Of a DNA stretch of 38,081 nucleotides, positions 1-38,081 are shown piece by piece (the stretch's first letter is position 1; each line of letters starts with the position of its first letter). Origin of the DNA: a virus (taxonomy: Duplodnaviria > Heunggongvirae > Uroviricota > Caudoviricetes). The stretch lies in IMG/VR virus record IMGVR_UViG_2534681701_000006; one strand, written 5' to 3'. The notes under the pieces are model-generated. The model worked only from the letters and a program-made list of their open reading frames with translations, did no database searches and was not told where the DNA came from. A program made the translations under genes and the position numbers.

Positions 1-297
1 ACAACATCTTCGGCATCAAGTGTTATCGGGAGCAGCTCAGGCTACGTTGTTTTCTGTTGTTGAAGGAGGACGTAGTTTTCCTTCGCGCCAGTACTGGCGC
101 CACTTGAACAGCAAATTATCGTTGATCCCATGCTCACGAGCGAGTTGCGCTACGGAGATCTCTGGTCGATGCGAGAGTTCCACCATTTTGATTTTGAACT
201 CAACGGGATAATTAGGGCTTTTTTTACGCACTGCGGTTAATGATTTCATGAATAGCGTCCACCATATTTGGTGTCCACTATTCTCTCAGGAATTTCA
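1..297 (-). mobile_element. IS3-family insertion sequence, partial (window starts inside it); terminus at 297
   Basis: Minus-strand end reads TGAAATTCCTGAGAGAATAGTGGACAC (plus 271..297), which resembles the IS3 left end as I recall it (TGA start, AATAGTGGACAC block); orfA start lies 48 bp inside. Confidence 0.55.
37..249 (-). CDS. IS3-family transposase OrfA (HTH), 70 aa
   Basis: Translation (…VEFKIKMVELSHRPEISVAQLAREHGINDNLLFKWRQYWREGKL…) has the pattern of IS3/IS2-group OrfA HTH proteins; sits directly inside the IS3-like terminus. Confidence 0.55.
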   Translation of the reverse strand: MKSLTAVRKKSPNYPVEFKIKMVELSHRPEISVAQLAREHGINDNLLFKWRQYWREGKLRPPSTTENNVA

Positions 298-475
298 GGA
301 TCTGCCAGACGGTGCTGAGACGACGCTTACGCACGCAGTTTAGTTGTGTGGTATCCATTCCTTTGGTTGAGGCTTTACCGGTCAGCCCCTGTAACATCTG
401 GCGGTAGGTGTCTTCATCCATACCCAGTTCATTACGGGCAATATGGATAAGCTGTATCAGGCGTTTTTTCTGCAT
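278..475 (-). pseudogene. GemA-like (Mu gp16 family) gene, 3' end truncated by the IS3-family insertion at 297/298
   Basis: N-terminus MQKKRLIQLIHIARNELGMDEDTYRQMLQGLTGKAS matches the GemA/DUF1018 N-terminal motif as I recall it; ORF is 65 aa against roughly 180 aa expected, and its last codons and stop lie inside the IS terminus. AGGAGA RBS upstream of the ATG at 475. Confidence 0.5.

Positions 476-10381: not shown

Positions 10382-10406
<25 letters not shown>
10002..10406 (+). CDS. hypothetical protein, 134 aa, lower-GC orphan
   Basis: ORF on the opposite strand to its neighbours, visibly more AT-rich than flanking phage DNA; convergent 25-bp overlap with the P-loop gene. Confidence 0.35.
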
Positions 10407-13100
<2,694 letters not shown>

Positions 13101-24266: not shown

Positions 24267-25683
24267 CTATCTGCATGGTCCCGAAACCATTGAGGTGGAA
24301 AACGGTGCCCGCCCGGTTAAAACGGTGAAATCTGCCGTTATTGGCCTGATTGGTACCGCCCCGATGGGGGATGTCAATACGCTGGTACAGTGCCTGTCTG
24401 AGAAAGACGCAGCGGCATTTGGCAGCCAGTTCACCGGCTTTACCATTCCGCAGGCGCTGGATGCGATTTATGACCATGGTGCAGGCACCGTTCTGGTCAT
24501 TAACGTCCTCGACCCGGCGAAACATAAAACGGCGATCGAGGATGAGGTGGTTACCTTTGACAAATCGACAGGGCAGGCCAGACTGGCGCATCCGGTTGTC
24601 GCTAATGTGGTGGTGAAAAACAGTGAAGGCAGCACCACCCACACGGCGAACACGGACTACCGTGTTGATGCGCAGGCGGGTGTGCTCACGAACCTGGGCA
24701 AGGCTATTGAGGCCGGTGGCAGCGTGAAGGTGAGCTATGAGTACGCGGACCCGTCGAAGGTGACTGCGGCGGACATCATCGGCGGGGTGAACAGCGCCGG
24801 AAACCGAACCGGCATGAAGCTGCTTAACGACAGCTTCAACCTGTACGGCTATTTCGCCAAAATTCTGATTGCGCCGGTGTTCTGCACCCAGAAGAGTGTC
24901 GCAGTTGAGCTTATCGCCATGGCAGAGAAGCTGGGCGCGGTAACCTACATTGATGCGCCTGTCGGTACCACCTTTGCACAGGCTCTGGCAGGTCGTGGCC
25001 CGGAAGGCACCATCAACTTCAATACCAGCTCCGACCGCGTCCGTCTGTGCTATCCGCATGTGAAGGTATATGACCCGGTGACAAACACAGAGCGTCTGGA
25101 GCCGCTCAGCCAGCGTGCAGCAGGTCTGCGTGCCAGAGTCGATCTGGACAAGGGCTACTGGTGGTCATCCTCCAATCAGGAGATTCTGGGGATCACCGGC
25201 GTGGAGCGCCAGCTGTCCGCGATGATTGATGACCCGCAGAGTGAGGTGAACCTGCTTAACGAACAGGGGATCACCACGGTATTCAGCAGTTACGGCAGCG
25301 GCCTTCGTCTGTGGGGTAACCGGACGGCAGCATGGCCAACGGTCACCCATATGCGTAACTTTGAGAACGTTCGCCGCACCGGTGATGTGATCAACGAGTC
25401 CATTCGTTATTTCAGCCAGCAGTACATCGACATGCCGATTACTCAGGCGCTGATTGATGCACTGACGGAGTCGGTCAACGCCTACGGTCGCAAAATGACT
25501 GGTGATGGTGCGGTACTGGGCTTCCGTTGCTGGTTTGATCCGGCCCGCAATCCGGAGACGGAGCTGGCCGCCGGGCACCTGTTGCTGAGCTACAAATATA
25601 CGCCACCACCGCCGCTGGAGCGACTGACGTTTGAGACTGAGATCACCTCGGAATACCTGTTAACCCTGAAAGGGGGCAACTGA
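24256..25683 (+). CDS. contractile tail sheath protein (Mu L-like), 475 aa
   Basis: Size and position immediately upstream of the tube gene. Confidence 0.75.
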   Translation: MAANYLHGPETIEVENGARPVKTVKSAVIGLIGTAPMGDVNTLVQCLSEKDAAAFGSQFTGFTIPQALDAIYDHGAGTVLVINVLDPAKHKTAIEDEVVTFDKSTGQARLAHPVVANVVVKNSEGSTTHTANTDYRVDAQAGVLTNLGKAIEAGGSVKVSYEYADPSKVTAADIIGGVNSAGNRTGMKLLNDSFNLYGYFAKILIAPVFCTQKSVAVELIAMAEKLGAVTYIDAPVGTTFAQALAGRGPEGTINFNTSSDRVRLCYPHVKVYDPVTNTERLEPLSQRAAGLRARVDLDKGYWWSSSNQEILGITGVERQLSAMIDDPQSEVNLLNEQGITTVFSSYGSGLRLWGNRTAAWPTVTHMRNFENVRRTGDVINESIRYFSQQYIDMPITQALIDALTESVNAYGRKMTGDGAVLGFRCWFDPARNPETELAAGHLLLSYKYTPPPPLERLTFETEITSEYLLTLKGGN

Positions 25684-26204
25684 TGTCAAAGATTGAGATA
25701 AACCGCATCACGAATGCCAACATCTATCTGGATGGTACTAACCTGCTGGGACGGGCTGAGGAAGTTAAACTCCCCGATGTCTCCATGATTATGCAGGAAC
25801 ACAAGGCGCTGGGGATGGTGGGTAAGGTGGAACTCCCGGCTGGTTTTGACAAACTGGAAGGCGAAATCAAATGGAACAGCTTTTACCGCGATGCGATGCT
25901 GTCTGCCGCGAACCCGTACAGGTCGCTGGCACTGCAGTGTCGTTCCAGCGTCCAGCGCTACAGCTCGCAGGGGCTGATTGACGAAATCCCGCTGGTCACC
26001 TTCCTGACGATTATGTTCAAGAAGAACCCGCTGGGGACGTTCAAACAGCACGAGAACGCCGAGTTCTCCAGTAGCTTCACCTGCACGTATATCAGACAGG
26101 TACTGGATGGTGAAGAGCTGCTGCAACTGGACTATCTGGCCAACATCTTCCGGGTCGGCGGTGTTGATCAACTGACTGACTACCGTATCAATATCGGGGG
26201 CTGA
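25683..26204 (+). CDS. tail tube protein (Mu M / P2 FII-like), 173 aa
   Basis: Size and position after the sheath gene. Confidence 0.7.
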   Translation: MSKIEINRITNANIYLDGTNLLGRAEEVKLPDVSMIMQEHKALGMVGKVELPAGFDKLEGEIKWNSFYRDAMLSAANPYRSLALQCRSSVQRYSSQGLIDEIPLVTFLTIMFKKNPLGTFKQHENAEFSSSFTCTYIRQVLDGEELLQLDYLANIFRVGGVDQLTDYRINIGG

Positions 26205-26254
26205 CGGTGAGTGTTGAACTGACGGATAAAGGAGGACGATGTGCGGCACTGGGC

Positions 26255-26488
26255 ATGTCAAATGGTACGTGGTTTACCCTCCTTGATATTCCGGGGGTGG
26301 AAACCCTTTTTAATACCCGTAAAACCAATGACCCGATTGACTGCACACGTTCAAAGGCCCGCAAACTGGCGGATTTGATTGAAGCATGGGAGCCTCCCGA
26401 CCACTGGTTCTCCGGCATCGGCAAATCTGAGGGAAAGACGCTTCTCATCGCTTTCCTGCGTAACTGCAAGGGGTTTCGCACTTGCTGA
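26255..26488 (+). CDS. hypothetical protein, ~77 aa
   Basis: GGAGGA upstream of ATG at 26255 (an alternative GTG start at 26207 gives 93 aa); followed by a GC hairpin at about 26495..26510. Confidence 0.3.
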   Translation: MSNGTWFTLLDIPGVETLFNTRKTNDPIDCTRSKARKLADLIEAWEPPDHWFSGIGKSEGKTLLIAFLRNCKGFRTC

Positions 26489-26585: not shown

Positions 26586-26921
26586 ATGTCACAGACCCCA
26601 TCCGATACTTTTAAATTGTCTTATCCCTTCACCACTGCTGCAGGCACCAGAATTGAGCTGGTTGAACTGAAACGCCTGACGGTAAAAGACCTGAAGCAGG
26701 TGCGCAAAATCAGCAAAAACCCGGCAGACTGGGACGAACCGCTGATTGCCCGCAGTACTGGTCTTCTCCCGGAGGATCTCGACAATATGGATCTGGCTGA
26801 TTACCTGCAGTTACAGAAACGATTTCAGCTCATCACGGGGATGGGTGAGAGCAACCAGGGCGCTGACGCAGGCGCAGGGGCTGCTGGCGAGATGGTTCCG
26901 GTTTCAGCCGGGGGAGATTGA
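26586..26921 (+). CDS. tail assembly chaperone (P2 gpE-like), 111 aa
   Basis: Position directly upstream of the tape measure gene; acidic C-terminal half. Confidence 0.55.
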   Translation: MSQTPSDTFKLSYPFTTAAGTRIELVELKRLTVKDLKQVRKISKNPADWDEPLIARSTGLLPEDLDNMDLADYLQLQKRFQLITGMGESNQGADAGAGAAGEMVPVSAGGD

Positions 26922-27003
26922 TGCCCTCGATACTGACGATCTGGAGATGTGGCTGGAGCAGGCTGAAGAGCAAATCAAAAGCGAGTACGGCGACAAATCA
27001 TAG
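26746..27003 (+). CDS. +1-frame extension of the tail assembly chaperone (gpE+E'-like frameshift product, C-terminal part)
   Basis: Overlaps the end of the chaperone ORF in the +1 frame; a shift at the G5 run (26906..26910) joins …VSAGG to EIDALDTDDLEMWLEQAEEQIKSEYGDKS. Confidence 0.45.
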   Translation: MPAVLVFSRRISTIWIWLITCSYRNDFSSSRGWVRATRALTQAQGLLARWFRFQPGEIDALDTDDLEMWLEQAEEQIKSEYGDKS

Positions 27004-27078
27004 TACAGACAGCCGCCAGTAGCGGCTGTTCTGCGTTATCCCCTCACGTCTTTTCACCTTCCCCGGAGGTTAACCACT

Positions 27079-30030
27079 ATGTCGGGACAGTTTTCAGTCG
27101 GCGTTGTTATCGGCGGGATGATTGGCAGCACATTCCGTTCTGCAATGAGCGGTACCCGCCGTGCGCTTGATTCCCTGAGCGATACCTCACGCCGCCTGCA
27201 GGAACGTCAGAACGCTTTAACCCGTGCAACAGAACGTTATGGTCAACTGGGTTCTTCCCGGATGCAGCATCTCAACAGCGAGCTGCTGCGGGTAAGCCGC
27301 ACCATGGAGCAAATTGAGCGCCAGCAGCGCCGTCTGTCAGCGGCATCCGCTACCAGTGATGCGCTGAAAGCTAACCGCATGGCGCTGTATGGTCAGGGGA
27401 TTGAAGCGTATGGCATGGCACAGACTGTTTATCATACGGTTTCCCCTGCCGTTCAGCAGTCCATGTCTTTTCAGGACAAAATGATTGATATGTCGATCAC
27501 CGCAAAATATGACAATAAAACGCGGGATGCACTTGCCGGACAGATAAAAGGCTGGGCGCTTAAATACAATCAGTATCAGGATGAGCTGCAGGAGGCGGTG
27601 GGTTCACTCATCAGCGACAATATTGATAATGTGTCAGATATCGGTTTTCTGATGCCGGATATTGCCCGCGCGGCAACGGCAACACGCACGTCTGCTCAGG
27701 ACTGGGCAAAAGTGGCCGCAGTCTGGCAAAACTCCCTGAAAGGTGCGGCCAGAGATTTTGGTGCCGTTCAGAATATTATGGCTTATGCCGGTGACCAGGG
27801 GTCATTTGAAATCCCGGATCAGGTCAAGTGGATGCAGTCCCTGGCCCCAATGATGGCGGGTATTGCCAGTGGAAAAGAGGCTGTTGCTGAAATCGGGGCC
27901 AGTCTCCAGATAGCAAAAATCGGTGCAGGTTCCACCGACGAAGCAGCCAATAATTTTAAAAACTTTCTTACCAAAATTTTTGCCCGCGATACTCAGAAAC
28001 AGTTTGCTGATCTGGGTATTGATTTGCAGGGATCTATTGCGAGTTATAAGGCTGCGGGGATCTCTCCGATTGAAGGGATGTTGAGTGTTATAGAACGTTA
28101 CCTCAATGCCAAAAGCCCCGAAGCGCTGGCCGGCTTCAAATCCGCCATGAAAATAAAGAATGATACGGCAAGAGATGAGGCACTTCAGGCTCTGGCGAAA
28201 AACTTTGGTCTGGGTGATATGTTCGCGGATATGCAGGTCATGGCATTTATCCGCCCGATGCTGGCCAACATGGACAGATATCGAGAGATCCGTGCCGGTG
28301 CTCTCAGGGCTGCGGATAACGATTTGCTTGCCAGTGCTTACGATCAGCGACTGAAATCTCCCCTTGAAGCCACTAAAACACTTATGGTCAGCAGTCGCGA
28401 TCTGGCAATTACGCTGGGCGATCAATTAGCTCCATCTTTTATTTCTTTGACTCAGGAACTGCTTCCACTCATTCAGGGGGCAAAACACTGGGTAGCGACT
28501 CACCCGCAATTTGTCAGTGGGGCTTTTAAGCTCATCAGTGCGCTCCTTGCGATTAAGATAGCGACTGTTGGTCTCAAACTGGGGCTGAATCTCCTTATTT
28601 CCCCCTTTGTAAGTGTCTGGAAAAATGCTGTTTTACTCCGGACCAACTGGCATCGACTGACTACCGCACTCGGAGAAGGTGGCAAATTACGCTGGCTTGT
28701 CACTGGATTCAGCCGACTGACCAGCGGAGGACTGAAACTCAGCAAAGTTCTGGCGGGCAGCCTCGTTCGCGGTTTTATGAGCGCTGCACGTGCCGTTCTC
28801 TGGATTGGGCGAGCGCTGATGATGAATCCCATCGGTCTCGTTATCACCGCTGTCGCGGCAGCAGCTTACCTTATCTACCGCAACTGGGGGGCTGTCAGTG
28901 GTTGGTTTAAACAGCGCTGGGCTGACATTCAGGAAGCCTTTAACGGCGGCATTGTGGGAACTGGTAAGTTGCTGATTAACTGGTCGCCGGCAGGCCTGCT
29001 CTATAAAGCCTTTGCGGCTGCGCTGAAATATTTCGGCGTTGCTCTGCCGGCAAAGTTCACCGACTTCGGTGGCCATCTTATCGACGGTCTGATTAACGGT
29101 ATCAAAAACAAATGGGGGTCGCTCAAATCCAGTGTAACCGGAATGGGTGACAGCATCAGTAGCTGGTTTAAACAGCGCTGGGCTGACATTCAGGAAGCCT
29201 TTAACGGCGGCATTGTGGGAACTGGTAAGTTGCTGATTAACTGGTCGCCGGCAGGCCTGCTCTATAAAGCCTTTGCGGCTGCGCTGAAATATTTCGGCGT
29301 TACTCTGCCGGCAAAGTTCACCGACTTCGGTGGCCATCTTATCGACGGTCTGATTAACGGTATCAAAAACAAATGGGAGTCGCTCAAATCCAGTGTAACC
29401 GGAATGGGCGACAGCATCAGTGGCTGGTTCAGCGAAAAGCTGGGCATTCATTCGCCGAGCCGCGTGTTTATGGGCTTTGGTGACAATATCGCGCAGGGGG
29501 CCGCCATTGGCCTGCAGCGGACCACTCCGCTTGCAGCTCTGGCCGGGCAGCGAATGGCCAGTGAACTGCTCCCCAAAATGCCCGTGAGCATTCAGGGGCC
29601 AGAAATACGGGATAACACTTCAGGTGTTCGCTTCAGTATGCCGTTGCCCGATATCAATGGGTTTATGTCGTCTGCTAAAAATGCGATCGGAGCCGTAATC
29701 AATAGTTTGTCTTCCATGCCCGCTATTCCGCTCTCCACCCGGGCATCGATTTTACCAGGGCAACGTCTGGCAAATGAGATGACACCGGATGTTCCCCGTA
29801 TCCCCTCGCCTGAAATCCTGGCTGCCGGATATTCAGGCCGTGGTGCAGCTGCAACCGGCGGTGGAACGTCTGGTGGTATCCAGGTCAGCTTTAATCCTCA
29901 GTTTTTCCTCAATGGCAGGGAAACCACAGCGCCTGCAGGACTGACTGGTGCCCTGAATATGAGTCTGCATGAGCTGGAAAAAATGCTGGAGCGTCTGCTT
30001 GCTCAGAAACAACGTAAGGAGTACCGCTGA
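27079..30030 (+). CDS. tail tape measure protein, 983 aa, containing an internal tandem duplication
   Basis: Largest ORF in the tail module; GGAGG RBS; Ala/Gly-rich hydrophobic central region. Confidence 0.85.
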   Translation: MSGQFSVGVVIGGMIGSTFRSAMSGTRRALDSLSDTSRRLQERQNALTRATERYGQLGSSRMQHLNSELLRVSRTMEQIERQQRRLSAASATSDALKANRMALYGQGIEAYGMAQTVYHTVSPAVQQSMSFQDKMIDMSITAKYDNKTRDALAGQIKGWALKYNQYQDELQEAVGSLISDNIDNVSDIGFLMPDIARAATATRTSAQDWAKVAAVWQNSLKGAARDFGAVQNIMAYAGDQGSFEIPDQVKWMQSLAPMMAGIASGKEAVAEIGASLQIAKIGAGSTDEAANNFKNFLTKIFARDTQKQFADLGIDLQGSIASYKAAGISPIEGMLSVIERYLNAKSPEALAGFKSAMKIKNDTARDEALQALAKNFGLGDMFADMQVMAFIRPMLANMDRYREIRAGALRAADNDLLASAYDQRLKSPLEATKTLMVSSRDLAITLGDQLAPSFISLTQELLPLIQGAKHWVATHPQFVSGAFKLISALLAIKIATVGLKLGLNLLISPFVSVWKNAVLLRTNWHRLTTALGEGGKLRWLVTGFSRLTSGGLKLSKVLAGSLVRGFMSAARAVLWIGRALMMNPIGLVITAVAAAAYLIYRNWGAVSGWFKQRWADIQEAFNGGIVGTGKLLINWSPAGLLYKAFAAALKYFGVALPAKFTDFGGHLIDGLINGIKNKWGSLKSSVTGMGDSISSWFKQRWADIQEAFNGGIVGTGKLLINWSPAGLLYKAFAAALKYFGVTLPAKFTDFGGHLIDGLINGIKNKWESLKSSVTGMGDSISGWFSEKLGIHSPSRVFMGFGDNIAQGAAIGLQRTTPLAALAGQRMASELLPKMPVSIQGPEIRDNTSGVRFSMPLPDINGFMSSAKNAIGAVINSLSSMPAIPLSTRASILPGQRLANEMTPDVPRIPSPEILAAGYSGRGAAATGGGTSGGIQVSFNPQFFLNGRETTAPAGLTGALNMSLHELEKMLERLLAQKQRKEYR
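28903..29424. repeat. near-perfect tandem duplication, 2 x 261 bp (87 codons), inside the tape measure gene
   Basis: TGGTTTAAACAGCGCTGGGCTGACATTCAGG… recurs at 28903 and 29164 with only a few mismatches across the unit. Confidence 0.9.
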
Positions 30031-30914
30031 TGTTTGCCGTACTGGGTGATATTGAGTTTGAGCTGATTACCTACTGGGACGGCTTCGAGGCCACGTTCGG
30101 CGTCGATTATGCGGAGCATGCCCGCATCGGGGGTAAGCCTGGCCTGCAGTTCGTCGGCGACAGGCTGGACGAAATCCAGATAACTCTGGTTTTCCATCAG
30201 CATTATTGTGTACCCGATGTGGAGCTGGCGAGACTGCGAACAGCCATGAAAGCCCATCAGGCACTGGCGCTGGTCTTCGGCAACGGTGACTATCGCGGCT
30301 GGTTCGTGATTACCGATGTGACTGCAACCAGCGAGCAGACTGACAGTATCGGCAACGTGCTGGCTGTCAGTGCCACCGTGTCTCTCCGGGAATACACCGG
30401 TGACCCGAAAAATCCTCTGCAACCACCGGCAATACGCACGAAGCTCCCGGGTGTCGGGGCGGTCTCCGGTGCCATTCCTTCACCTTCCGGGGTGGCGCAG
30501 TTCATCCGCAACGGCGTCAACTATGCGAAACAGGCGCAGTCTGTACTCCAGACCACTATCAGCGCCGTTCGGGTGACACAGAAAATGAAGGATAACCCCG
30601 TTGTCGCACTGACCCGTGTGCCGGGGCTGATGAGCGGACTGGGTAATATCTCCGGGGCTCTGGGGAAAAGTGTTCCGGCGTTTAACGCACTCTCTGAATC
30701 CATGCCCGATGCCATCAGTCTGGCCAGAACAGCCAGCGAAGCAGCCACGTATGTACAGCAGGCACAGTCTGCGCTGAGTGGTGTGGACAAAAGAAATATT
30801 GCAGGTGCTCTGGATACCGTTTCCGGGCAGCTTAACGCCGTCGGAACAGCATTCAACCGCATGTCTCCGGGATTAAGTGCAATGGCCGCCAGAATACTGA
30901 CGAGGAGTGTGTGA
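30030..30914 (+). CDS. tail protein (P2 gpU / Mu N-like), 294 aa
   Basis: Directly follows the tape measure gene; N-terminal half resembles gpU-type proteins, C-terminal half Ala/Ser-rich. Confidence 0.55.
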   Translation: MFAVLGDIEFELITYWDGFEATFGVDYAEHARIGGKPGLQFVGDRLDEIQITLVFHQHYCVPDVELARLRTAMKAHQALALVFGNGDYRGWFVITDVTATSEQTDSIGNVLAVSATVSLREYTGDPKNPLQPPAIRTKLPGVGAVSGAIPSPSGVAQFIRNGVNYAKQAQSVLQTTISAVRVTQKMKDNPVVALTRVPGLMSGLGNISGALGKSVPAFNALSESMPDAISLARTASEAATYVQQAQSALSGVDKRNIAGALDTVSGQLNAVGTAFNRMSPGLSAMAARILTRSV

Positions 30915-31126
30915 TGTTTCTTGAACATGTTACCCGTGACGGAGAGCGCTGGGATTCGCTGGCATGGCAGTACTACGGTGACCCGCTGGGCTATCCCCGG
31001 ATTATTGCCGCCAATCCGCACGTGGCCATCACGCCGGTGCTGCCCTCCGGGCTGTTGTTACTGATCCCGGTGATTGAGGCTGAAGAAGCCCGTACAGAAG
31101 AGGATATTGCCCCATGGCTGAGATAA
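30911..31126 (+). CDS. tail protein X-like (LysM-like fold), 71 aa
   Basis: Small protein with a gpX-like pattern (…WDSLAWQYYGDP…AANPHVA…); overlaps its neighbours. Confidence 0.5.
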   Translation: MMFLEHVTRDGERWDSLAWQYYGDPLGYPRIIAANPHVAITPVLPSGLLLLIPVIEAEEARTEEDIAPWLR

Positions 31127-32270
31127 ACAGCACTGCGCAAGTCACATCAGCGTTAACCGGCGTCAGCGATGTGCTGACACCGGTGTTCACTCTGTGGTAT
31201 CTGCAGAAAAACATCACCTCTGATATCGCGCCTTATGTCACCCGTGTGACCTGGAGCGATAACATCAAAAATGAGTCCGATACCATTGAGGTGGAGCTGG
31301 ACGACACCGATGGCCGCTGGCTGGATAAGTGGTATCCGGGCAAGGGTGACACGCTGACGCTGAAAATGGGCTATCAGGGCGAGAAGCTGCTGTCCTGCGG
31401 TACGTTCTCTATAGACGAGATCGAAGTGAGTTCGCCCGCTTCCGTTGTTTCTATCCGTGGGGTGGCCACCTCGGTTAACAGTGCCCTGCGGACTAAAACC
31501 AAGTCGTGGTTTTGAGAACACCACGCTGGCAGCTGTTGCGGGGCGGATTGCCAGAAAGCACCGACTGAAACTGGTGGGCAGCATTGAGTCCATCAGAATC
31601 GACCGGGTGACCCAGTATGCTGAAACCGACGTGGGTTTTCTGCGCCGGCTGGCCAGCGAGTATGGTTATGCAGTGAAAGTGGTCAGTGACCAGCTGATTT
31701 TTTCTCATCTGGCCACACTGCGCAGTCAGGAGCCGGTCAGGCAGTTAAAACCGCAGGATGTGGCCCGCTTTTCCCTGCGTGACACCATCAACCGGGTCTA
31801 TAAATCTGCAAAGGTAAAACACCAGAAAAGCAGCAGTAAAAAACTGATCGTCTACGAAGCTGATGGTGGTACCCGTGAAAGCGACAAAAAAGCTCAAAGG
31901 TGGTAAGGTTACCAGCGCTGACTCACTTAAAGTTAACAGCCGCGTCAGCGACCCGGACAGTGCCCGGATTAAAGCGGATTCAGCACTGGCCAGACATAAC
32001 GAATACCAGCAGAACGGCTCCCTGACGCTGACGGGAACACCTCAACTGACAGCAGGCAACAAAATTGAACTGGTGGGTTTTGGGCAGTTATCCGGGCCAT
32101 GGCTCATAACCACTGCCCGCCATGCGTTTGACCGTAACAGCGGCTACACCACAGAGCTGGAAGTGGCACGGGGGCCAGTCACAAGAGGGAAAAAACAAAA
32201 AACTCAGAAACTCACGGTTTATCACCCGGATGGCAGTACATCGACGGTGATTAAGGAGAAGAAAAAATGA
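31114..32270 (+). pseudogene. baseplate hub gene (P2 gpD / Mu P-like) split into three ORFs by two frameshifts
   Basis: ORFs 31114..31515, 31445..31906 and 31863..32270 occupy three frames and together span 1157 bp (~385 codons); shifts fall near a T4 run (31509..31512) and an A6 run (about 31886..31891). Confidence 0.55.
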
Positions 32271-32863
32271 CTGGTGTCACTCGTCAGGTCGGTACGGTCA
32301 GTGCCGTTGATGCCGACAGGGTTCAGGCCCGCGTTCGTCTGCCTGAATGCGATAACCTGCGCACAAACTGGCTTAACGTGCTGCAGCGCAATACCCAGGA
32401 TAACAAAGATTACTGGCTCCCTGACGTGGGGGAGCAGGTTGAGGTGCTGCTCGATGCCAACGGCGAGGATGGTGTTATTCTGGGCGCGGTGTATTCAGAC
32501 GTCGATAAACCACCGTTCAGTGACAAAAATATCCGGGGAACCCGGTTTGCTGATGGTGCAGAGTACAGCTACAACCGGAAGACGCACACTCTGACCATCC
32601 GGGGCGGCATTGAGCATATTGTCATTGAGTGTGGTGCTGATGTGGTATTGAAAACACAGAAAGCCACGATTGACGCACCGGAAACCGAACTTACCGGAGA
32701 TCTGCGTGTCAGGGGTAAGCTGATTTACGAAGGAGGCATGGCGGGTTCTGGTGGTGAAGGTGTTACCGCGACCATCCATGGCAATATCGAGATTAAAGGG
32801 AATGCCCATGCCACGGGCAGTATGTTGTCTGATGGCGAAAACTCCAGCCACCACTCCCACTGA
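32267..32863 (+). CDS. baseplate spike/assembly protein (P2 gpV-like), 198 aa
   Basis: gpV-like N-terminal OB-fold pattern (GTVSAVDADRVQARVRLPECDNL…); Gly-rich C-terminus. Confidence 0.65.
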   Translation: MTGVTRQVGTVSAVDADRVQARVRLPECDNLRTNWLNVLQRNTQDNKDYWLPDVGEQVEVLLDANGEDGVILGAVYSDVDKPPFSDKNIRGTRFADGAEYSYNRKTHTLTIRGGIEHIVIECGADVVLKTQKATIDAPETELTGDLRVRGKLIYEGGMAGSGGEGVTATIHGNIEIKGNAHATGSMLSDGENSSHHSH

Positions 32864-32917
32864 GCTTTTTAAACGCCTTTAATATCAGCGTTCCCGCACG
32901 GGGGCAATACTGCCCCC

Positions 32918-33265
32918 ATGAAAACAACCTCAGTATTCTGGCAACCAGCCCTGCAGGCTCCCGGCGAAATTGTCCGGGGGCTGGATGATATCCGGCAGGC
33001 GATTCAAATTATCCTGCGGACTCCCCGCGGCAGCGACCCGCATCGCCCGGAGTTCGGCAGCAATCTGCATCTTTATATCGACTGGCCTGTAGACCGGGCC
33101 ATTCCGCATGTGGTGCGCGAATCCGTCGATGCCATCCGGCGCTGGGAGCCCCGCTGCCAGCTTATGTCAGTTAAACCCGCCGTCGACGGCGAACATCTTA
33201 CGCTCCGGGTGAGCTGGAAAGGCTCAGACGGACAGACCCGGACTCAGGAGCTGCTATGGCGCTGA
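32918..33265 (+). CDS. baseplate wedge protein (GPW/gp25 family), 115 aa
   Basis: Size and GPW-like sequence pattern; position between the V-like and J-like genes. Confidence 0.6.
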   Translation: MKTTSVFWQPALQAPGEIVRGLDDIRQAIQIILRTPRGSDPHRPEFGSNLHLYIDWPVDRAIPHVVRESVDAIRRWEPRCQLMSVKPAVDGEHLTLRVSWKGSDGQTRTQELLWR

Positions 33266-34359
33266 CAGAACCCGATTTTATTGAACGCGATGCCGACAAA
33301 ATTACGGCAGAAATGATTGCGAAGTATGAAGCGGATACCGGCAAAACGCTGTACCCGGCACAGGCAGAACGTCTGCTGATTGATCTGTGGGCCTATCGCG
33401 AAATGCTGGTCAGGGTTGCGGTACAGGAGGCAGCAAAGCAGAATCTGGTCGCCTTTGCCCGTGAGCCGATGATTGATTACCTCGGTGAACTGGTTGGTGT
33501 ATACCGTCTTGCCGCGCAGCCTGCCACCACCACGCTCCAGTTCTCCGTAGATGAGGCACTGGCCATTGATGTGCTGATCCCGGCAGGCACCCGCGTCAGC
33601 GCTTCCGACAGCGTTATTTTTGCCACCGATACAGATGTGGTACTGAAGGCCGGATTGCTGCTGGTCAATGTCACGTCCACCTGTACCGAACCCGGTACCG
33701 CTGGTAACGGCTGGCAACCTGCGCAGGTCAGTCAGTTACTCGATGAGATTGATAACGTCGACCTGCTGGTGAGCAATCTGACGGCCAGTTCCGGCGGTTC
33801 AGAACAGGAAGACGATGACAGGCTCCGGGAGCGTATCAGGCTGGCCCCGGAGTCATTCACCAATGCCGGAAGCCGTGGCGCATACCGCTTTCATGCCATG
33901 CAGGCCCATCCCAACATTGTCGATGTTGCTGTGCTTTCCCCGGTTCCCGGGACCGTAGATCTGTATCCGCTGCTCAGTACCGGTCTGCCGGACGGCGGTG
34001 TTCTCACGCTGGTAGAGAGTTTCTGCTCTGATGAGAAAGTCAGGCCACTCACTGATACAGTGCGGGCTAAAACACCAGTGAAGGTGGATTACACCATTGA
34101 AGCCAGGATTACGATCTATCGTGATCAGGATGCCAGGTCTGTAAAAGATGCCGCTAACAGCGCCATACAGAACTGGGTGGCATCACGTGCCGCCACGCTG
34201 GGGCGCGATATTGTCCCCAGCCAGATTATCAGTGCATTGTCCGTTTCCGGGGTGTACCAGGTTGAACTGGTGACACCGGCACTGCGGGTGGTGGCAGAAA
34301 ACGAATGGGCAAACTGTACGGCAATCACTCTTAACATGACTGGAGTGTCTGATGACTGA
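33256..34359 (+). CDS. baseplate protein J-like, 367 aa
   Basis: Size and position in the conserved V-W-J-I order. Confidence 0.7.
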   Translation: MALTEPDFIERDADKITAEMIAKYEADTGKTLYPAQAERLLIDLWAYREMLVRVAVQEAAKQNLVAFAREPMIDYLGELVGVYRLAAQPATTTLQFSVDEALAIDVLIPAGTRVSASDSVIFATDTDVVLKAGLLLVNVTSTCTEPGTAGNGWQPAQVSQLLDEIDNVDLLVSNLTASSGGSEQEDDDRLRERIRLAPESFTNAGSRGAYRFHAMQAHPNIVDVAVLSPVPGTVDLYPLLSTGLPDGGVLTLVESFCSDEKVRPLTDTVRAKTPVKVDYTIEARITIYRDQDARSVKDAANSAIQNWVASRAATLGRDIVPSQIISALSVSGVYQVELVTPALRVVAENEWANCTAITLNMTGVSDD

Positions 34360-34930
34360 GCCATTACAACTCCCGCCACCGCTTGAGGGTGATATCAGTC
34401 TCAGGACGCTGGGAAGACTGGCAGGACGGCTGGATAACATCGACCTGAGCGTACTGATGGTCTTTCTCGTCGATATCGTCGACAGTTCCGCGCTGCCATG
34501 GCTGGGCGAGCAGTTCTCACTGTCTGGCGATGGCTGGGAGCTGGCGGAATCGGACGATGTTCGCCGCATGCTTATAAAAGCAGCCATCGAACTGCACCGG
34601 TATAAAGGGACGCCGTGGTCAATCCGGGAAGTTATCCGCCGTTTTGGCTTTGGTGAAGTGGATCTGATTGAAGGCACAGGTCGTCTCAGTTACGACGGCA
34701 ATCGCAGCTATAACGGACTGTTTGTTCATGGAGATGCAGCCGCCTGGGCAGTTTATCGCGTTATTCTGAAACAGCCCATTACTAACGATCAGGCCGCGAT
34801 GCTGCGTCAGACGCTGGCTGCATTTGCACCGGCCCGCTGCCATCTGGCCAGCCTGGAGTATCAGTCTGTGGCCATTCGCTATAACAATACCGCCATCCAT
34901 GATGGCAGTTATAACCACGGGAGCAGTTGA
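34352..34930 (+). CDS. tail protein I-like (baseplate), 192 aa
   Basis: Position after the J-like gene and before the tail fibre gene. Confidence 0.6.
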   Translation: MTEPLQLPPPLEGDISLRTLGRLAGRLDNIDLSVLMVFLVDIVDSSALPWLGEQFSLSGDGWELAESDDVRRMLIKAAIELHRYKGTPWSIREVIRRFGFGEVDLIEGTGRLSYDGNRSYNGLFVHGDAAAWAVYRVILKQPITNDQAAMLRQTLAAFAPARCHLASLEYQSVAIRYNNTAIHDGSYNHGSS

Positions 34931-34932
34931 TT

Positions 34933-36224
34933 ATGGGAAACCTGAATGAAACAGAAAAGTGGGAAGAAAATATCTATCAACTGGAGACATCAGATCCGGT
35001 TCTGGGTGGTGCAGACGGGATATCAAATCGAGCCCCCGGCAACTGGCAAACAGGACGAAATGGCTGAAGAAGAAAACGGAGGAAGCCGCACAGTCACTGG
35101 CTGAACACGTACGTTCCCGTAACCACCCGGACGCGACACTGACAGCTAAGGGGTTCACCCAACTGAGCAGTGCCACCAACAGCACCTCTGAAACGCTGGC
35201 CGCCACACCAAAAGCGGTCAAGGCTGCATACGACCTGGCAGCCGGCAAGGCGCCTGCCAGCCACACTCACCCGTGGAGTCAGATAACGGGAGTGCCTGCG
35301 GCTTCACTGACGGCAAAAGGCACCGTACAACTGAGCAGCGCCACGGACAGTCAATCAGAAACTGAGGCTGCCACGCCGAAGGCGGTCAAGGCTGCATACG
35401 ACCTTGCAGCCGGCAAGGCGCCCGTCAGCCACACTCACCCGTGGAGTCAGATAACGGGAGTGCCTGCTGCCTCGCTGACGGCAAAAGGCACCGTACAACT
35501 GAGCAGTGCCATCAACAGCACGTCTGAAATACTGGCCGCCACACCGAAAGCGGTCAAGGCTGCATACGATCTGGCAAACGGAAAACAACCGGCAGATGCC
35601 ACGCTCACTGCTCTGGCAGGACTTGCCACTGCAGCAGATCGGTTGCCTTATTTTACCGGAGCAGACCGCGCAGCGCTGGCAACCCTTACAGCTATTGGTC
35701 GCGCTATTATCGCTAAGGGCAGTATAAAAGATGTCCTCAATTACCTTGGTTTGGGGGAAGGCTCTGCATTGCCTGTTGGTGTACCGGTTCCATGGCCCAC
35801 CGCCACACCGCCAGCAGGCTGGTTAAAGTGCGACGGGCGCGCCTTTACAAAAGAACAATATCCTGTTCTGGCCAGAGTCTACCCGACCCTCCGTCTTCCC
35901 GATTTACGCGGTGAGTTTATCCGTGGATGGGACGACGGGCGCAAGATTGACGAGGGGCGTAAGTTGCTTTCATGGCAGAAAGGTACACTGGTCGGCGGTC
36001 ATGACGATAACGATTCTTCGCTTGATATCTCGTACATGAGTAACGGAAATAATATTGACTATGGCGGCGATAAGGTGTTTGCGGGGAATTACCGTAGCGA
36101 TTATTTGTGGTACGTAATTCTGGGTGGAACAAACAGTCGCGCAAAAGCCGAATTAAACGGAGCATTCTTTAACATAACCCGCCCCCGCAATATCGCGTTT
36201 AACTATATCGTGAGGGCGGCGTGA
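34933..36224 (+). CDS. tail fibre protein with an apparent frameshift in a C5 tract (35034..35038) and phage tail-fibre repeats
   Basis: ATG at 34933 encodes MGNLNETEKWEENIYQLETSDPVLGGADGISNRAP, which resembles tail-fibre N-termini as I recall them, then hits a stop; the long ORF continues in another frame from 34959. Three ~56-aa repeats; conserved C-terminal NYIVRA. Confidence 0.7.
35745..35944. repeat. left arm of ~200-bp perfect inverted repeat flanking the invertible tail-fibre cassette
   Basis: Identical in reverse complement to 37166..37362; invertase half-site-like sequence (GGTTTGGGGGAA) at its outer edge. Confidence 0.8.
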
Positions 36225-36230
36225 TACCGT

Positions 36231-36845
36231 TCAACTGGCAAGTGCCAGTGGCGCTTCCGGCCAGCTGATTTCAGGTGCCGTGCTGATATCCAGTGCGTTC
36301 AGCTCGTCGATATAATCCAGCACGGCGTTCAGTTTTGCCGTTTCTTCTGGTGTCAGACTGCGACCAGCACGCAGTTTGAGGTTGATAAGATCGACTGACG
36401 CCATCGCCTGTTTCACCCGTTGCTGGCGTTGCTGTCTGGCAACCTCCAGTTCTGCGGCTCGCTGCCGTTCAGTATCGGTTACCCACGCCTCACCGTTCCA
36501 GGTATCCCATGGCGTGGCTGGCTGTTTTGTGGTGGTGTCCGCCGGGTAATCACCCGGTTGGGTAATCAGAACAGGGTTACCGTTCTCCGTGCTGTATACC
36601 GTCTCGCCGCGGTGATCAGGCACATGCTCCCACCCGTTCAGCGTGGCAGTCCGGCAAACCACGTAACCCGAAATTGCCTCCGGCGGTGCATCGGCGCACG
36701 AATGTGCCGGAGTACCCACCCCAAGGGCGAGATACTCCACAGAGGATGAGGTGTATTCCCGGGTTTCCTCGTCATAGTGATATACAGTGATATCGCCCGC
36801 TACAGTGGCGATACCGTTTTCATCCAGAACTGCAGTGTTACTCAT
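36231..36845 (-). CDS. tail fibre assembly protein (Tfa, Mu U-like), 204 aa
   Basis: Tfa-like size and sequence; immediately downstream of the alternative fibre C-terminus on the minus strand. Confidence 0.7.
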   Translation of the reverse strand: MSNTAVLDENGIATVAGDITVYHYDEETREYTSSSVEYLALGVGTPAHSCADAPPEAISGYVVCRTATLNGWEHVPDHRGETVYSTENGNPVLITQPGDYPADTTTKQPATPWDTWNGEAWVTDTERQRAAELEVARQQRQQRVKQAMASVDLINLKLRAGRSLTPEETAKLNAVLDYIDELNALDISTAPEISWPEAPLALAS

Positions 36846-37357
36846 TAAACTGCCCTCACAATGTAATTAAGTGCAATGCTACGGGGTCTGACAGTGATAC
36901 CCTTCGCATACCCGCTTCTGATAGAGGTCAGAATAGTAGCCTGCATACCATTGTCTGACATTGCCACGACAGGATCGCTGAATGTTGTCCCGTCCGGCAT
37001 TTTAAAGCTGCCCTCACGAAGGTCTGTAATGGAATCTTCATTGTTGAATCCCATGCCGACTATCCCCGAGGTTCCCGTAGTGTCCTGGTTATAATAATCC
37101 AGCATTGCTGTTCTTAACAGCGTTGCCCCTTGTGCGGACAGCAACTTACGTCCTGTATCAACTTTGCGCCCGTCGTCCCATCCACGGATAAACTCACCGC
37201 GTAAATCGGGAAGACGGAGGGTCGGGTAGACTCTGGCCAGAACAGGATATTGTTCTTTTGTAAAGGCGCGCCCGTCGCACTTTAACCAGCCTGCTGGCGG
37301 TGTGGCGGTGGGCCATGGAACCGGTACACCAACAGGCAATGCAGAGCCTTCCCCCAA
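36845..37357 (-). CDS. alternative tail fibre C-terminal cassette (S'v-like), with no start codon of its own
   Basis: First ~64 aa are identical to an internal segment of the plus-strand fibre (inverted repeat), then diverge; ends in NYIVRAV, paralleling the expressed fibre. Confidence 0.6.
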   Translation of the reverse strand: MGEGSALPVGVPVPWPTATPPAGWLKCDGRAFTKEQYPVLARVYPTLRLPDLRGEFIRGWDDGRKVDTGRKLLSAQGATLLRTAMLDYYNQDTTGTSGIVGMGFNNEDSITDLREGSFKMPDGTTFSDPVVAMSDNGMQATILTSIRSGYAKGITVRPRSIALNYIVRAV

Positions 37358-37362
37358 ACCAA
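37166..37362. repeat. right arm of the inverted repeat flanking the invertible tail-fibre cassette
   Basis: Reverse complement is identical to 35745..35944. Confidence 0.8.
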
Positions 37363-37428
37363 CGTTTATCTCTCAAATCCTCCCCACATTATCTCAGTAC
37401 TTTAACCACTCAAAAGGGAGTATTTTTA

Positions 37429-38001
37429 ATGCTGATTGGCTACATACGTGTGTCAACAAATGACCAAAACATAGATTTGCAACGCAATGCATTAATGTGC
37501 GCAGGATGTGAACAGATTTTTGAGGACAAAATGAGCGGAACCAAGTCGGAACGACCAGGCCTGAAACGCGCTTTAAAGTGCCTTAAAAGAGGGGATACAT
37601 TGGTGGTCTGGAAGCTGGATCGGTTGGGTAGAAGAATGAAACACCTCATTGCTCTCACAGAAGAGCTACGCGCAAAAGGTGTCAATTTTCGCAGTCTGAC
37701 GGATTCAATCGATACCAGCACTCCGATGGGAAGGTTCTTTTTTCATATGATGGGTGCACTGGCAGAAATGGAGCGTGAACTGATAGTTGAGCGCACGCTG
37801 GCAGGACTGGCTGCTGCGCGAGCACAAGGAAGAGTTGGAGGACGTCGCCCGAAACTGACGAAGGAGCAGCATGAGCAGATCGCAAGATTGCTCCAGAAAG
37901 GGTATGACAGAAAGCGGCTGGCAATTATCTATGATATTGGACTGTCAACGATCTACCGCTATCACCCTGTTGGGACTGTCATAACGCAACCTGAAATGTA
38001 A
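37429..38001 (+). CDS. serine recombinase, DNA invertase of the Gin/Pin/Cin/Hin family, 190 aa
   Basis: N-terminal MLIGYIRVSTNDQ catalytic-serine motif and C-terminal HTH; GGGAG RBS; adjacent to the invertible fibre cassette. The ORF-track start at 37300 is an upstream extension. Confidence 0.9.
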   Translation: MLIGYIRVSTNDQNIDLQRNALMCAGCEQIFEDKMSGTKSERPGLKRALKCLKRGDTLVVWKLDRLGRRMKHLIALTEELRAKGVNFRSLTDSIDTSTPMGRFFFHMMGALAEMERELIVERTLAGLAAARAQGRVGGRRPKLTKEQHEQIARLLQKGYDRKRLAIIYDIGLSTIYRYHPVGTVITQPEM

Positions 38002-38032
38002 TTCTTTTTCAAATAATGAAACGCCGCGTGGA

Positions 38033-38079
38033 TGCCATTTATCGCACAAGATAGAGTGCATTTATCGCGCGGCGCATCA
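38033..38079. other. putative prophage right end: two direct repeats (CATTTATCGC) ending in …GCGCATCA, resembling Mu attR transposase-binding sites
   Basis: GCCATTTATCGCACA and GCATTTATCGCGCGG about 25 bp apart; resembles the Mu right-end R sites as I recall them, and Mu-type ends terminate in CA. Confidence 0.3.
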
Positions 38080-38081
38080 CC

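Follow-up and report, generated by a model that had tools for sequence, protein, structure and literature searches.

In prfB, +1 slippage takes place on CUU_U. Slippage in the same direction is reported for influenza A PA-X on UUU_C, within the sequence UCC_UUU_CGU (PMC3498833), and shifts of −1, −2 and +1 are on record for phage tail assembly chaperones (PMC5009743). The gpE and gpE+E′ proteins of phage P2 depend on a programmed −1 frameshift at G_GTT_TTT_TG, with the site annotated at 19685 (AF063097). For the tail chaperone of Mu, a −2 frameshift on GG_GGG_CGA has been described (Xu, Hendrix and Duda 2004, cited in PMC3458567 and PMC5009743).

The stretch of DNA analysed here (the window, 38,081 nucleotides) corresponds in full to AQET01000047.1, a contig in the draft assembly of E. 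coli P0298942.1 (GCA_000356165). The prophage on it is BcepMu/Mu-like and belongs to a family found in about 450 to 620 of the 5426 complete E. coli genomes searched. The sequence at the right end of the phage is ...GCGCGGCGCATCA and the contig stops 2 nt beyond this end. All features described below lie on the + strand, except for a terminal IS66-family fragment that was given no strand. A first-pass annotation had reported four frame breaks clustered in the tail genes, one in the chaperone, two in the baseplate hub and one in the tail fibre. All four exist, but the coordinates or the attributions had to be changed for three of them. In our view they probably have three unrelated origins: a programmed +1 shift in the chaperone, consensus errors restricted to this contig in gpD, and a clonal deletion in the fibre. 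Because the causes are separate, the four breaks are not a shared mark of tail decay.

Over about 34 kb, the prophage differs from an intact relative by only three uncompensated indels, two in gpD and one in the fibre, each of them a length change in a run of identical bases. All three fall within 3.5 kb (P ~0.03 under uniform placement, our own calculation); the proposed group of four also mixed events of differing origin. Other intact relatives include the ST131 prophage and phage PhiKM. Among the 142 homopolymer runs of at least 5 bases, 140 agree with the relatives and two deviate, and there is therefore no general homopolymer problem in the contig. Comparison with orthologues, as had been advised, placed the gpD insertions in no relative and the fibre deletion also in sibling isolates; the chaperone region contained no indel relative to any relative. 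Carriers of each indel were counted with 101-nt probes from the identity of the best match together with the span of the record; counting by identity bands of these probes was dropped, as a single gap still gives 99.0%.

Two overlapping frames in the tail assembly chaperone

As in P2, the chaperone gene follows the tube gene (25683-26204), here after a small ORF (26207-26488), and comes ahead of the tape-measure gene (27079-30030). Its zero-frame product (26586..26921) is a gpE-like protein of 111 aa, assigned from gene position and from a match to PF10109 (Phage_TAC_7) over residues 8-81 (E=5.5e-21; 74.8-79.2 bits for a cut-off of 25); the domain ends at residue 82. In the +1 frame, an E′-like extension (26827..27003) was recognised from codon-level conservation and from a weak, near full-length match to PF06528 (Phage_P2_GpE), whose score of 18.4 bits (E=0.0015) is below the cut-off of 23. 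The long product that would join the two frames is predicted at 138 aa.

It had been suggested from the sequence that the chaperone represents a conserved programmed frameshift into the +1 frame, and a codon-level comparison of 56 unique homologues supports this. The zero frame is under constraint only to about position 26838; 30 of the 56 homologues carry a zero-frame stop at 26898, and in two the stop comes at 26856, where the responsible change leaves the +1-frame residue unaltered. From 26839 to 27001, the +1-frame amino acids are retained despite multiple codon changes. Invariant or near-invariant residues are thus written with six different codons at Gly 26839, five at Ala 26872, and four each at Leu 26881, Arg 26899 and Pro 26908. 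Within 26839-26909, none of the variation alters the +1-frame protein, whereas in the zero frame it is all non-synonymous or nonsense. The second overlapping frame, together with its extension, is under purifying selection, and the 0-to-+1 arrangement with the extension is kept in E. coli, Ralstonia and Pseudomonas homologues.

These comparisons suggest that the chaperone gene uses programmed +1 frameshifting, a mechanism already known. The majority of ribosomes would stay in the zero frame to 26921, and a minority would slip by +1 at CGA_UUU_C, the tRNA-Phe moving from UUU (26823-25) to UUC (26824-26). The slipped ribosomes would then continue through the E′-like extension to 27003 and yield the 138-aa form. 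In the records examined only the short form is annotated. The predicted 138-aa form was not found in a collection of about 15 billion proteins; a G4 in-frame fusion was found there instead, which is explained by homopolymer errors. Annotation pipelines give only the 111-aa chaperone; a +1 junction at codon 80, for which the predicted junction peptide is ...LQLQKRF|SSSRGW..., would allow them to include the long form as well.

Position of the frame change

In the 56 homologues, 26797-26842 is the only interval where the change of frame can occur, and the sole invariant nucleotide block of this interval, identical in 56/56, is CGATTTCA (26820-26827). On the strength of this invariance, CGA_UUU_CAG (26820..26828) is the predicted programmed +1 site. 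The X_UUU_C motif is retained in Ralstonia and Pseudomonas, with a +1-frame TGA just three codons upstream. The conserved slippery sequence is a single-codon +1 motif and not a canonical −1 heptamer. It precedes the G5 run, which is close to the end of the zero frame, by about 90 nt and matches the position of the annotated E/E+E′ site of P2. Comparative analysis therefore points to UUU_C as the probable site of the shift, both products being predicted ones.

Nothing that would stimulate slippage was found: the zero-frame codon that follows UUU (CAG) is not rare, no Shine-Dalgarno-like element is found upstream in the E. coli sequences, and no structure is backed by covariation. RNAalifold applied to 16 diverse sequences gave −10.6 kcal/mol, with a single compensatory pair and +0.28 for the covariation term, which leaves a stimulatory RNA structure unsupported. 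A slip within GCT_GCT_GGC_GAG (26880-91), a block invariant among close relatives, was also considered; it was rejected as no tRNA re-pairing is possible there, and wider sampling put the start of the +1-frame constraint further upstream.

The first-pass annotation had located the shift at the G5 run and had given this run as 26906-26910. The run is in fact at 26910..26914, where it forms part of a Pro-Gly-Glu sequence in the +1 frame, and it is not the shift site. A Mu-like G-run mechanism was also our initial assumption, and several observations speak for a shift at that place, either by +1 on GGG_G or by a Mu-like −2: the −2 shift documented for Mu also uses a run of G (GG_GGG_CGA; PMC3458567), the zero-frame stop comes 5 nt after the G5 run, and in one viral contig (L092) a 1-nt deletion at the run fuses the two frames. 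However, a zero-frame TAG precedes the run in KP12 and Phi06_2974, and the census of the 56 sequences then extended this to the 30 homologues that stop upstream of it. The run itself is missing from three homologues (Salmonella, L093 and L095), and the Ralstonia and Pseudomonas homologues are without a G-run at this position. The one-sided variation across 26839-26909, with the +1 frame constrained from about 26839, likewise speaks against this site, and selection on the +1 frame is evident about 70 nt upstream of the run where a Mu-type −2 shift would have to occur. We therefore regard a shift at the G5 run as very improbable. Hardly more credible is an independent small gene with its own start codon in the +1 frame: a TTG-started ORF of 85 aa (26746-27003) does appear in the ORF list, but no ATG, GTG or TTG is conserved in the +1 frame across 26797-26842, a +1-frame stop occurs at 26794 in 8 of the 56 homologues, the +1 frame of Ralstonia and Pseudomonas opens just three codons ahead of UUU_C without a start codon, and the homologous extension of P2 arises via frameshifting.

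A programmed +1 shift at UUU_C brings the chaperone close to the E/E+E′ system of P2, within the class of frameshifting tail assembly chaperones that also includes lambda G/GT and Mu gp41. The N-terminal PF10109 domain is common to both, and the E′ family (PF06528) is matched weakly here. UUU_C aligns with the annotated −1 site of P2, GGT_TTT_TTG, both being placed at the Phe codon that ends the chaperone domain. In both cases the shift is 30-33 codons ahead of a conserved PP/QP-[SG]-E...L..W.E.A motif, and both extensions carry [HR][WF]PPSE/QPGE..L..W.E.A. The two systems differ in direction, −1 in P2 and +1 here, and in the slippery sequence, a T7 run in P2 and a single UUU_C here. In contrast to P2, the zero-frame tail past the site is long (31 codons) and unconstrained. 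Like Mu, the prophage is a transposable myovirus, has its extension in the +1/−2 frame and shows a run of G (G5) towards the end of the ORF; however, the comparative evidence puts the shift at UUU_C, some 90 nt before that run, and tandem −2 re-pairing is impossible at UUU_C. As in PA-X and prfB, a move of one base downstream leaves the P-site tRNA perfectly paired (here from UUU to UUC), and the Pseudomonas homologue even has UUU_CGG. The difference from these two systems is that in the E. coli sequences UUU is followed in the zero frame by CAG, a codon that is not rare and not a stop, and that no stimulatory element was found.

On balance, these data favour a conserved +1 shift at X_UUU_C in the BcepMu-like gpE-type chaperones of Enterobacteria, Ralstonia and Pseudomonas, at the place where P2 shifts by −1. 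If this is true, the direction of frameshifting has switched within one protein family without loss of homology at the site or in the extension domain, and a P2-type family with −1 and +1 members would be a tidy system for the evolution of frameshift direction. The +1 shift of the chaperone would in itself be an incremental addition to a well-known phenomenon.

The gpD-like hub gene and a probably redundant contig

The choice between sequencing error and pseudogenisation offered for the remaining breaks was the right one for gpD and the fibre, all three defects being private or near-private. A single explanation does not fit all three: the gpD insertions are found in this contig only and the fibre deletion is common to the siblings. 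The gpD-like baseplate hub gene (31114..32270) is divided by two 1-nt insertions into three ORFs of 133, 153 and 135 aa, for a length of 1157 nt compared with 1155 nt in the relatives, and a full-length ORF of about 384 aa is not present. The first break had been ascribed to a T4 run. Alignment with 17 relatives and with the siblings showed that it results instead from an extra A at 31501..31502 (AA where the relatives have A); the T4 run (31509-31512) is merely ahead of the resulting stop codon. A change of A to AA is not a classic homopolymer error. The second break had been correctly assigned, being due to an extra A in an A6 run (31886..31891) that is A5 in the same 17 relatives and in the siblings. 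Once A31501 and A31886 are removed, the gene encodes 384 aa and its protein does not differ from that of the copy on another contig of the assembly, AQET01000023.1, and the repaired protein matches PF05954 (Phage_GPD) with 41.7 bits.

Neither extra A occurs in any of the 17 aligned relatives or in any sibling contig, and among complete E. coli genomes the gene is present in 617, none of which gave an exact match to a 101-nt probe for either insertion. The frameshifted fragments are restricted to this contig. The gene is intact at 384 aa on AQET01000023.1 and in three sibling assemblies, and the lesions are reproduced neither on the second contig nor in any of the sibling assemblies.

Overlap alignment showed that the segment 29113..38080 is duplicated at the end of AQET01000023.1, where it is joined to chromosomal genes, the flank past the right end of the phage being rihA-like. 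Over the 8966-bp overlap the two contigs differ only by 15 SNPs in a repeat of the tape-measure gene and by the two gpD insertions, and there is no substitution over 29347-38080 (8.7 kb). The left 29 kb of the prophage occur once in the assembly. The tape-measure gene contains two tandem 261-bp repeat units (28895..29429), and comparison of the units showed that in this contig only, unit 2 has been overwritten with unit-1 bases. The units are alike at 97.8% here compared with 93.1% in a sibling, the window has the unit-1 base at 14 of the 15 SNPs private to it, and in a set of 153 billion gene positions its tape-measure allele occurs nowhere else. A mis-threaded repeat would thus be placed at the start of the 9-kb overlap between the contigs.

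These features resemble a redundant-contig artefact, with 9 kb present twice in one assembly and a tandem repeat collapsed onto itself. There is also a likeness to homopolymer errors, as the C6 and G5 runs of this prophage family are mis-called in many noisy public assemblies. Unlike an ordinary draft artefact, the remaining contig is clean, the runs of at least 5 bases agreeing with the relatives at 140 of 142, and one of the three indels, the fibre C5, is reproducible across isolates. Because the same assembly has an intact copy, the two gpD insertions look like errors of this contig: most likely they are consensus errors confined to a redundant and partly mis-assembled contig, and the real prophage of the clone would most likely carry an intact gpD.

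Mu-like phages replicate by transposition. The insertions might then be real and belong to a second, recently transposed Mu-like copy, or to a subpopulation, in which the hub was knocked out twice and of which the window is the sequence. Besides this mode of replication, such a copy would explain that the assembly holds two versions of the right 9 kb, that the contig stops 2 nt past the right end of the phage, as expected where repeat copies diverge, and that the insertion at 31501/2 is outside any long homopolymer. However, two frameshifts and 14 repeat 'conversions' with no ordinary substitution in 8.7 kb make an implausible mutational spectrum, and no selection would act for a second frameshift in a dead gene. 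The single left 29 kb does not fit two copies either. Moreover, the sibling contigs pass unbroken from the phage end into the chromosome with the intact gpD only, and the frameshifted fragments are on no other contig. We consider a second copy unlikely. With consensus errors as the favoured explanation, the contig is not evidence for a doubly disrupted baseplate hub, and intactness or pseudogene scoring from this draft would over-count the lesions.

The tail fibre C-run and the state of the prophage

The tail fibre gene (34927..36224) is separated by a 1-nt deletion into an N-terminal piece of 44/46 aa and the remainder, as deduced from an intact relative and from repair of the reading frame. 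The ORF is intact in that relative (L005; 445 aa), and the addition of one C in the window gives an ORF of 432 aa. The break had been linked to a C5 run with a missing C, which proved right, but the run had been placed one base off, at 35034-35038 instead of 35033..35037; most relatives have C6. The deletion would cut the first 36 residues of the fibre off from the rest. The C-run is prone to indels and is a common error site in noisy long-read assemblies.

The same C5 is found on AQET01000023.1 and in at least three sibling assemblies (L008-L010), so that it is reproducible within the clone in both contigs and in three siblings, which probably come from the same platform. Only one of 589 complete RefSeq genomes has an exact match to C5. 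The 44-aa fragment occurs on 265 contigs, and 8 of 10 places sampled were error-ridden long-read assemblies and 2 of 10 were clean; the two clean complete genomes with C5 belong to another lineage. Because of the 8 error-ridden places, the 265 contigs were dropped as a proof that C5 is real. We conclude that the P0298942 clone has probably fixed a genuine mutation from C6 to C5.

Alternatively, C6 may have been under-called systematically across the siblings, as their assemblies probably originate from one centre and one platform; the fibre would then be intact in vivo. This is consistent with the rarity of exact C5 in complete RefSeq genomes, and with the 7-23 homopolymer deletions per 5.3 kb in the 8 noisy places among the 10 sampled, several of which also have broken housekeeping genes. 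The neighbouring G5 run behaves alike, its G4 in-frame fusion being found on 242 contigs. Nevertheless, C5 is present in two contigs and recurs in three or more sibling isolates that were sequenced independently, all of them otherwise indel-free, the remaining runs of at least 5 bases are correct at 140 of 142, and the two clean genomes of the other lineage also have C5. A sequencing artefact is thus a real alternative, and clearly a less probable one than a clonal mutation. There is very little to recommend a switch at the C-run, by C6/C5 phase variation or by a −1 P-site slip of tRNA-Pro on C_CCC before a rare CGG: C5 occurs in at least two prophage lineages, and if the tRNA moved back from CCC 35035-37 to 35034-36 and CGG were read next, the wild-type ...RAPRQL... 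would, as read from the sequence, be restored, but C5 is found in fewer than 1% of high-quality genomes, 5-6 C make a short run for phase variation, error can be demonstrated for the majority of the C5 calls in the places sampled, and the run is without a canonical heptamer.

Two insertion sequences also interrupt the prophage. An IS21-family element (11093..13046; istA 11179-12201, istB 12198-12980) lies inside a hypothetical phage gene. It is not in L005, and the flanking alignments overlap by 5 bp at the insertion point. The IS21-fusion ORF occurs on 10 contigs; each of the four places listed for it is an assembly of the P0298942 series. At the left, the contig terminates in an IS66-family repeat (1..330), recognised from IS66-like tnpA matches in many genomes, which interrupts a gp16/GemA-like gene; homology to the intact prophage starts at window position 331, within the gp16-family CDS of L005. 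The sibling assemblies have the same IS-fusion ORF, or contigs that end in IS elements, and the prophage is therefore decaying across the whole clone. Because of the fibre break and the two IS insertions, the prophage of the clone is probably defective whatever the state of gpD. Inducibility had been tied to the explanation of the frame breaks; the fibre frameshift and the two IS insertions are the point relevant to it, and they answer the question better than gpD does.

Frame breaks in the prophage

The window is one entire draft contig, AQET01000047.1 (assembly GCA_000356165.2, Escherichia coli P0298942.1), and carries a transposable BcepMu/Mu-like myovirus. The minus strand carries the early genes, a DDE transposase among them; on the plus strand are the lysis, head and tail genes, followed by a fibre segment capable of inversion and a Gin-like invertase. 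Among 5426 complete E. coli genomes, about 450-620 carry close relatives (~99% identity), and the identity to phage PhiKM is likewise 99%. The right end of the prophage (window 38040-38081) reads ...CATTTATCGCGCGGCGCATCA and resembles that of phage Mu.

The first-pass annotation had described one cluster of four frame breaks in tail genes. ORF and sequence inspection confirmed all four, but they split into three kinds of event. The window was aligned to five relatives (complete genomes and a phage record), four contigs of the P0298942 series (from sibling isolates, plus the second contig of the window's assembly) and other public contigs. This comparison with orthologous genes, already proposed as a check, located only three uncompensated indels in the ~34 kb prophage: one additional A at 31501/31502, another within the run 31886-31891, and one C too few in the run 35033-35037. 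No indel relative to the aligned relatives was detected in the chaperone region. Since 140 of the 142 homopolymer runs of at least 5 bases match the relatives, there is no general homopolymer problem. We read the breaks as a programmed frameshift of a known kind, two probable assembly errors and one clonal homopolymer deletion.

Probable programmed frameshifting in the tail chaperone

The zero-frame chaperone ORF (26586-26921) contains the PF10109 tail-chaperone domain at residues 8-82; the extension corresponds to a +1-frame ORF ending at 27003. Homologues from 79 viral loci, KP12 and a Salmonella prophage gave 56 unique sequences. Codon counts in this set indicate that zero-frame constraint extends only to about 26838; Thr 26835, for example, is kept in 55 of 56 sequences with five codons used. 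From 26839 onward, the +1-frame amino acids are kept despite many codon changes (Gly, six codons; Ala 26872, five; Leu 26881, four; Pro 26908, four; Arg 26899, CGG/AGA/AGG/CGC). Two homologues have a zero-frame stop at 26856, the change being synonymous in the +1 frame, and eight have a +1-frame stop at 26794. This stop and the limits of the two constraints place the frame change within 26797-26842, where the sole invariant nucleotide block is CGATTTCA (26820-26827). Homologues of Ralstonia and Pseudomonas (43% and 38% identity, respectively) retain X_UUU_C, both with a +1-frame TGA three codons upstream, which pins the frameshift site.

We conclude from these sequence comparisons that the chaperone undergoes a programmed +1 frameshift, at whose predicted site the ribosome would slip as tRNA-Phe re-pairs from UUU to UUC. 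Codon counts and distant homologues thus bear out the earlier suggestion of a conserved programmed shift in the +1 direction, and move its site into the 26820-26827 block. The G5 run, where the shift had been placed (at 26906-26910; the run is actually at 26910-26914), was rejected because it forms the Pro-Gly-Glu codons of the extension and because in 30 of 56 homologues the zero frame stops upstream of it, at the position equivalent to 26898. No RNA structure with covariation support was found at the shift, and no stimulatory element is evident. In published reports, UUU_C is a known motif for +1 shifts (PMC3498833; PMC10885494), chaperone shifts of tailed phages are -1, -2 or +1, and phage Mu uses a -2 shift at GG_GGG_CGA (PMC5009743, PMC3458567).

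The extension gave a weak, nearly full-length match to PF06528 Phage_P2_GpE (E=0.0015, which falls short of the family threshold). For phage P2 and a Pasteurella homologue, the frame of the homologous extension is -1, whereas it is +1 in the window. In the alignment, the annotated P2 site (GGT_TTT_TTG) falls on Phe80 of the window protein; the motif [HR][WF]PPSE/QPGE..L..W.E.A is common to the P2 and window extensions. A conserved +1 shift at X_UUU_C within the gpE family, switched in direction relative to P2 at the homologous codon, appears rather likely from these alignments; this switch would be the modest novelty here.

The long form is without annotation in public records: the predicted 138-aa product is absent from the protein collection and never annotated in the RefSeq records of four relatives (L001-L003, L005). 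On 242 public contigs a G5-to-G4 variant joins chaperone and extension in frame (138 aa, ...VSAG-EIDAL...); these include the noisy 5.44-Mb assembly that has the fibre C5, and a 1-nt deletion like it is present at the G-run of the viral contig L092. These variants are probably homopolymer errors, not alleles.

The tail fibre gene

Relatives have an intact fibre ORF of ~445 aa beginning directly after gene I, and one added C restores a 432-aa ORF in the window. The break does lie at a C-run, one position away from the 35034-35038 first annotated. The C5 is common to contig 23 (AQET01000023.1, the second contig of the window's assembly) and the sibling assemblies, and is thus reproducible within the clone. 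It was found in only 1 of 589 complete RefSeq genomes, and the 44-aa N-terminal fragment is on 265 contigs. Ten places with this fragment were sampled. Two of these are clean genomes with another prophage lineage; the other eight are assemblies that have 7-23 homopolymer deletions per 5.3 kb, and in several of these eight, housekeeping genes are broken as well. The C6 run therefore is a hot spot for both mutation and error. A sequencing error at this run is a possible, if doubtful, origin of the clone's C5; a true mutation in the P0298942 clone is more likely.

PGAP omits the intact fibre gene in L001-L003 and L005: its fibre entries there are fragments marked 'partial in the middle of a contig', or the N-terminus has no entry at all; L005 (E. 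coli 4/1-1) has a continuous 445-aa ORF at 46136-47473. Three near-identical ~56-aa repeats in the shaft (window 35100-35700; ...ATPKAVKAAYDLAAGKAP.SHTHPWSQITGVPAASLTAKGTVQLSSA...; PF03406 Phage_fiber_2) account for secondary BLAST alignments. At window 36180-37365 and 37429-38001 lie the C-terminal part of the fibre, an invertible segment of multiple cassettes with several alternative 'Collar'-domain C-termini, and a Gin-like resolvase/invertase; compared with E. coli 4/1-1, 36180-37365 stands in the opposite orientation. The single tail-fibre-assembly gene (36231-36845) is on the minus strand in the window orientation, which leaves the in-frame cassette without a co-oriented assembly gene behind it.

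The gpD-like gene and IS insertions

The gpD-like gene is broken twice in the window contig, as first annotated, with the second break in the 31886-31891 A run; the first, however, comes from an A-to-AA change; it had been assigned to the T4 run, which lies 8 nt further downstream. Once A31501 and one A of 31886-31891 are removed, the gene encodes a 384-aa PF05954 protein. With 101-nt probes, neither insertion had an exact match in 617 gene-carrying complete genomes, and among 15 billion proteins the frameshifted fragments were found on the window contig only. Contig 23 overlaps the window over 29113-38080 and continues beyond the right end of the phage into chromosomal genes (leuS, lptE, an IS1 and a truncated nucleoside hydrolase gene). 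Its gpD is intact and identical to the repaired gene; gpD is also intact in three sibling assemblies. The two extra A's are the sole differences between the window and contig 23 over 29347-38080. The rest of the differences, 15 SNPs, fall within 29176-29346, and at 14 of these positions the window matches the adjacent 261-bp repeat unit of the tape-measure gene; the resulting allele was seen nowhere else. Only one copy of the prophage's left 29 kb is present in the assembly.

The simplest reading of the insertions is that the window would be a redundant contig with poor consensus in the overlap region, the two insertions being probable assembly errors. A real second, transposed prophage copy with a broken gpD would fit a contig that breaks off only 2 nt beyond the phage sequence, but it is unlikely, as it would need two frameshifts in one gene and a repeat conversion without any ordinary substitution.

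The tape-measure gene has tandem 261-bp units (window 28895-29429), of which window unit 2 is homogenised to unit 1. Copy number varies among sibling assemblies (983 aa versus 1070 aa; L008, L010), and the repeat seems to confound assemblies. On contig 23 the phage right end is flanked by the truncated nucleoside-hydrolase (rihA-like) gene and then IS1, unlike ST131-type relatives, in which the prophage adjoins ycaL.

The contig begins inside an IS66-family element, whose end (1-330) interrupts a gp16/GemA-like gene, upstream of mor within the early transcript. A 1954-bp IS21-family element (11093-13046; istA 340 aa, istB 260 aa) lies ahead of the lysis genes, with the Dam methylase gene on one side and the holin gene on the other; it entered ~20 nt into a hypothetical phage gene, with a 5-bp overlap of the flanking alignments, and created a 246-aa fusion ORF (10382-11122, minus strand) that marks the P0298942 clone. 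Sibling assemblies have the same fusion ORF or contigs terminating in IS elements, and so the clone's prophage has both insertions and the broken fibre. It is probably defective regardless of the gpD state, the effect of the IS insertions being one that we infer. The remainder of the gp16/GemA-like gene and mor must be on a different contig.
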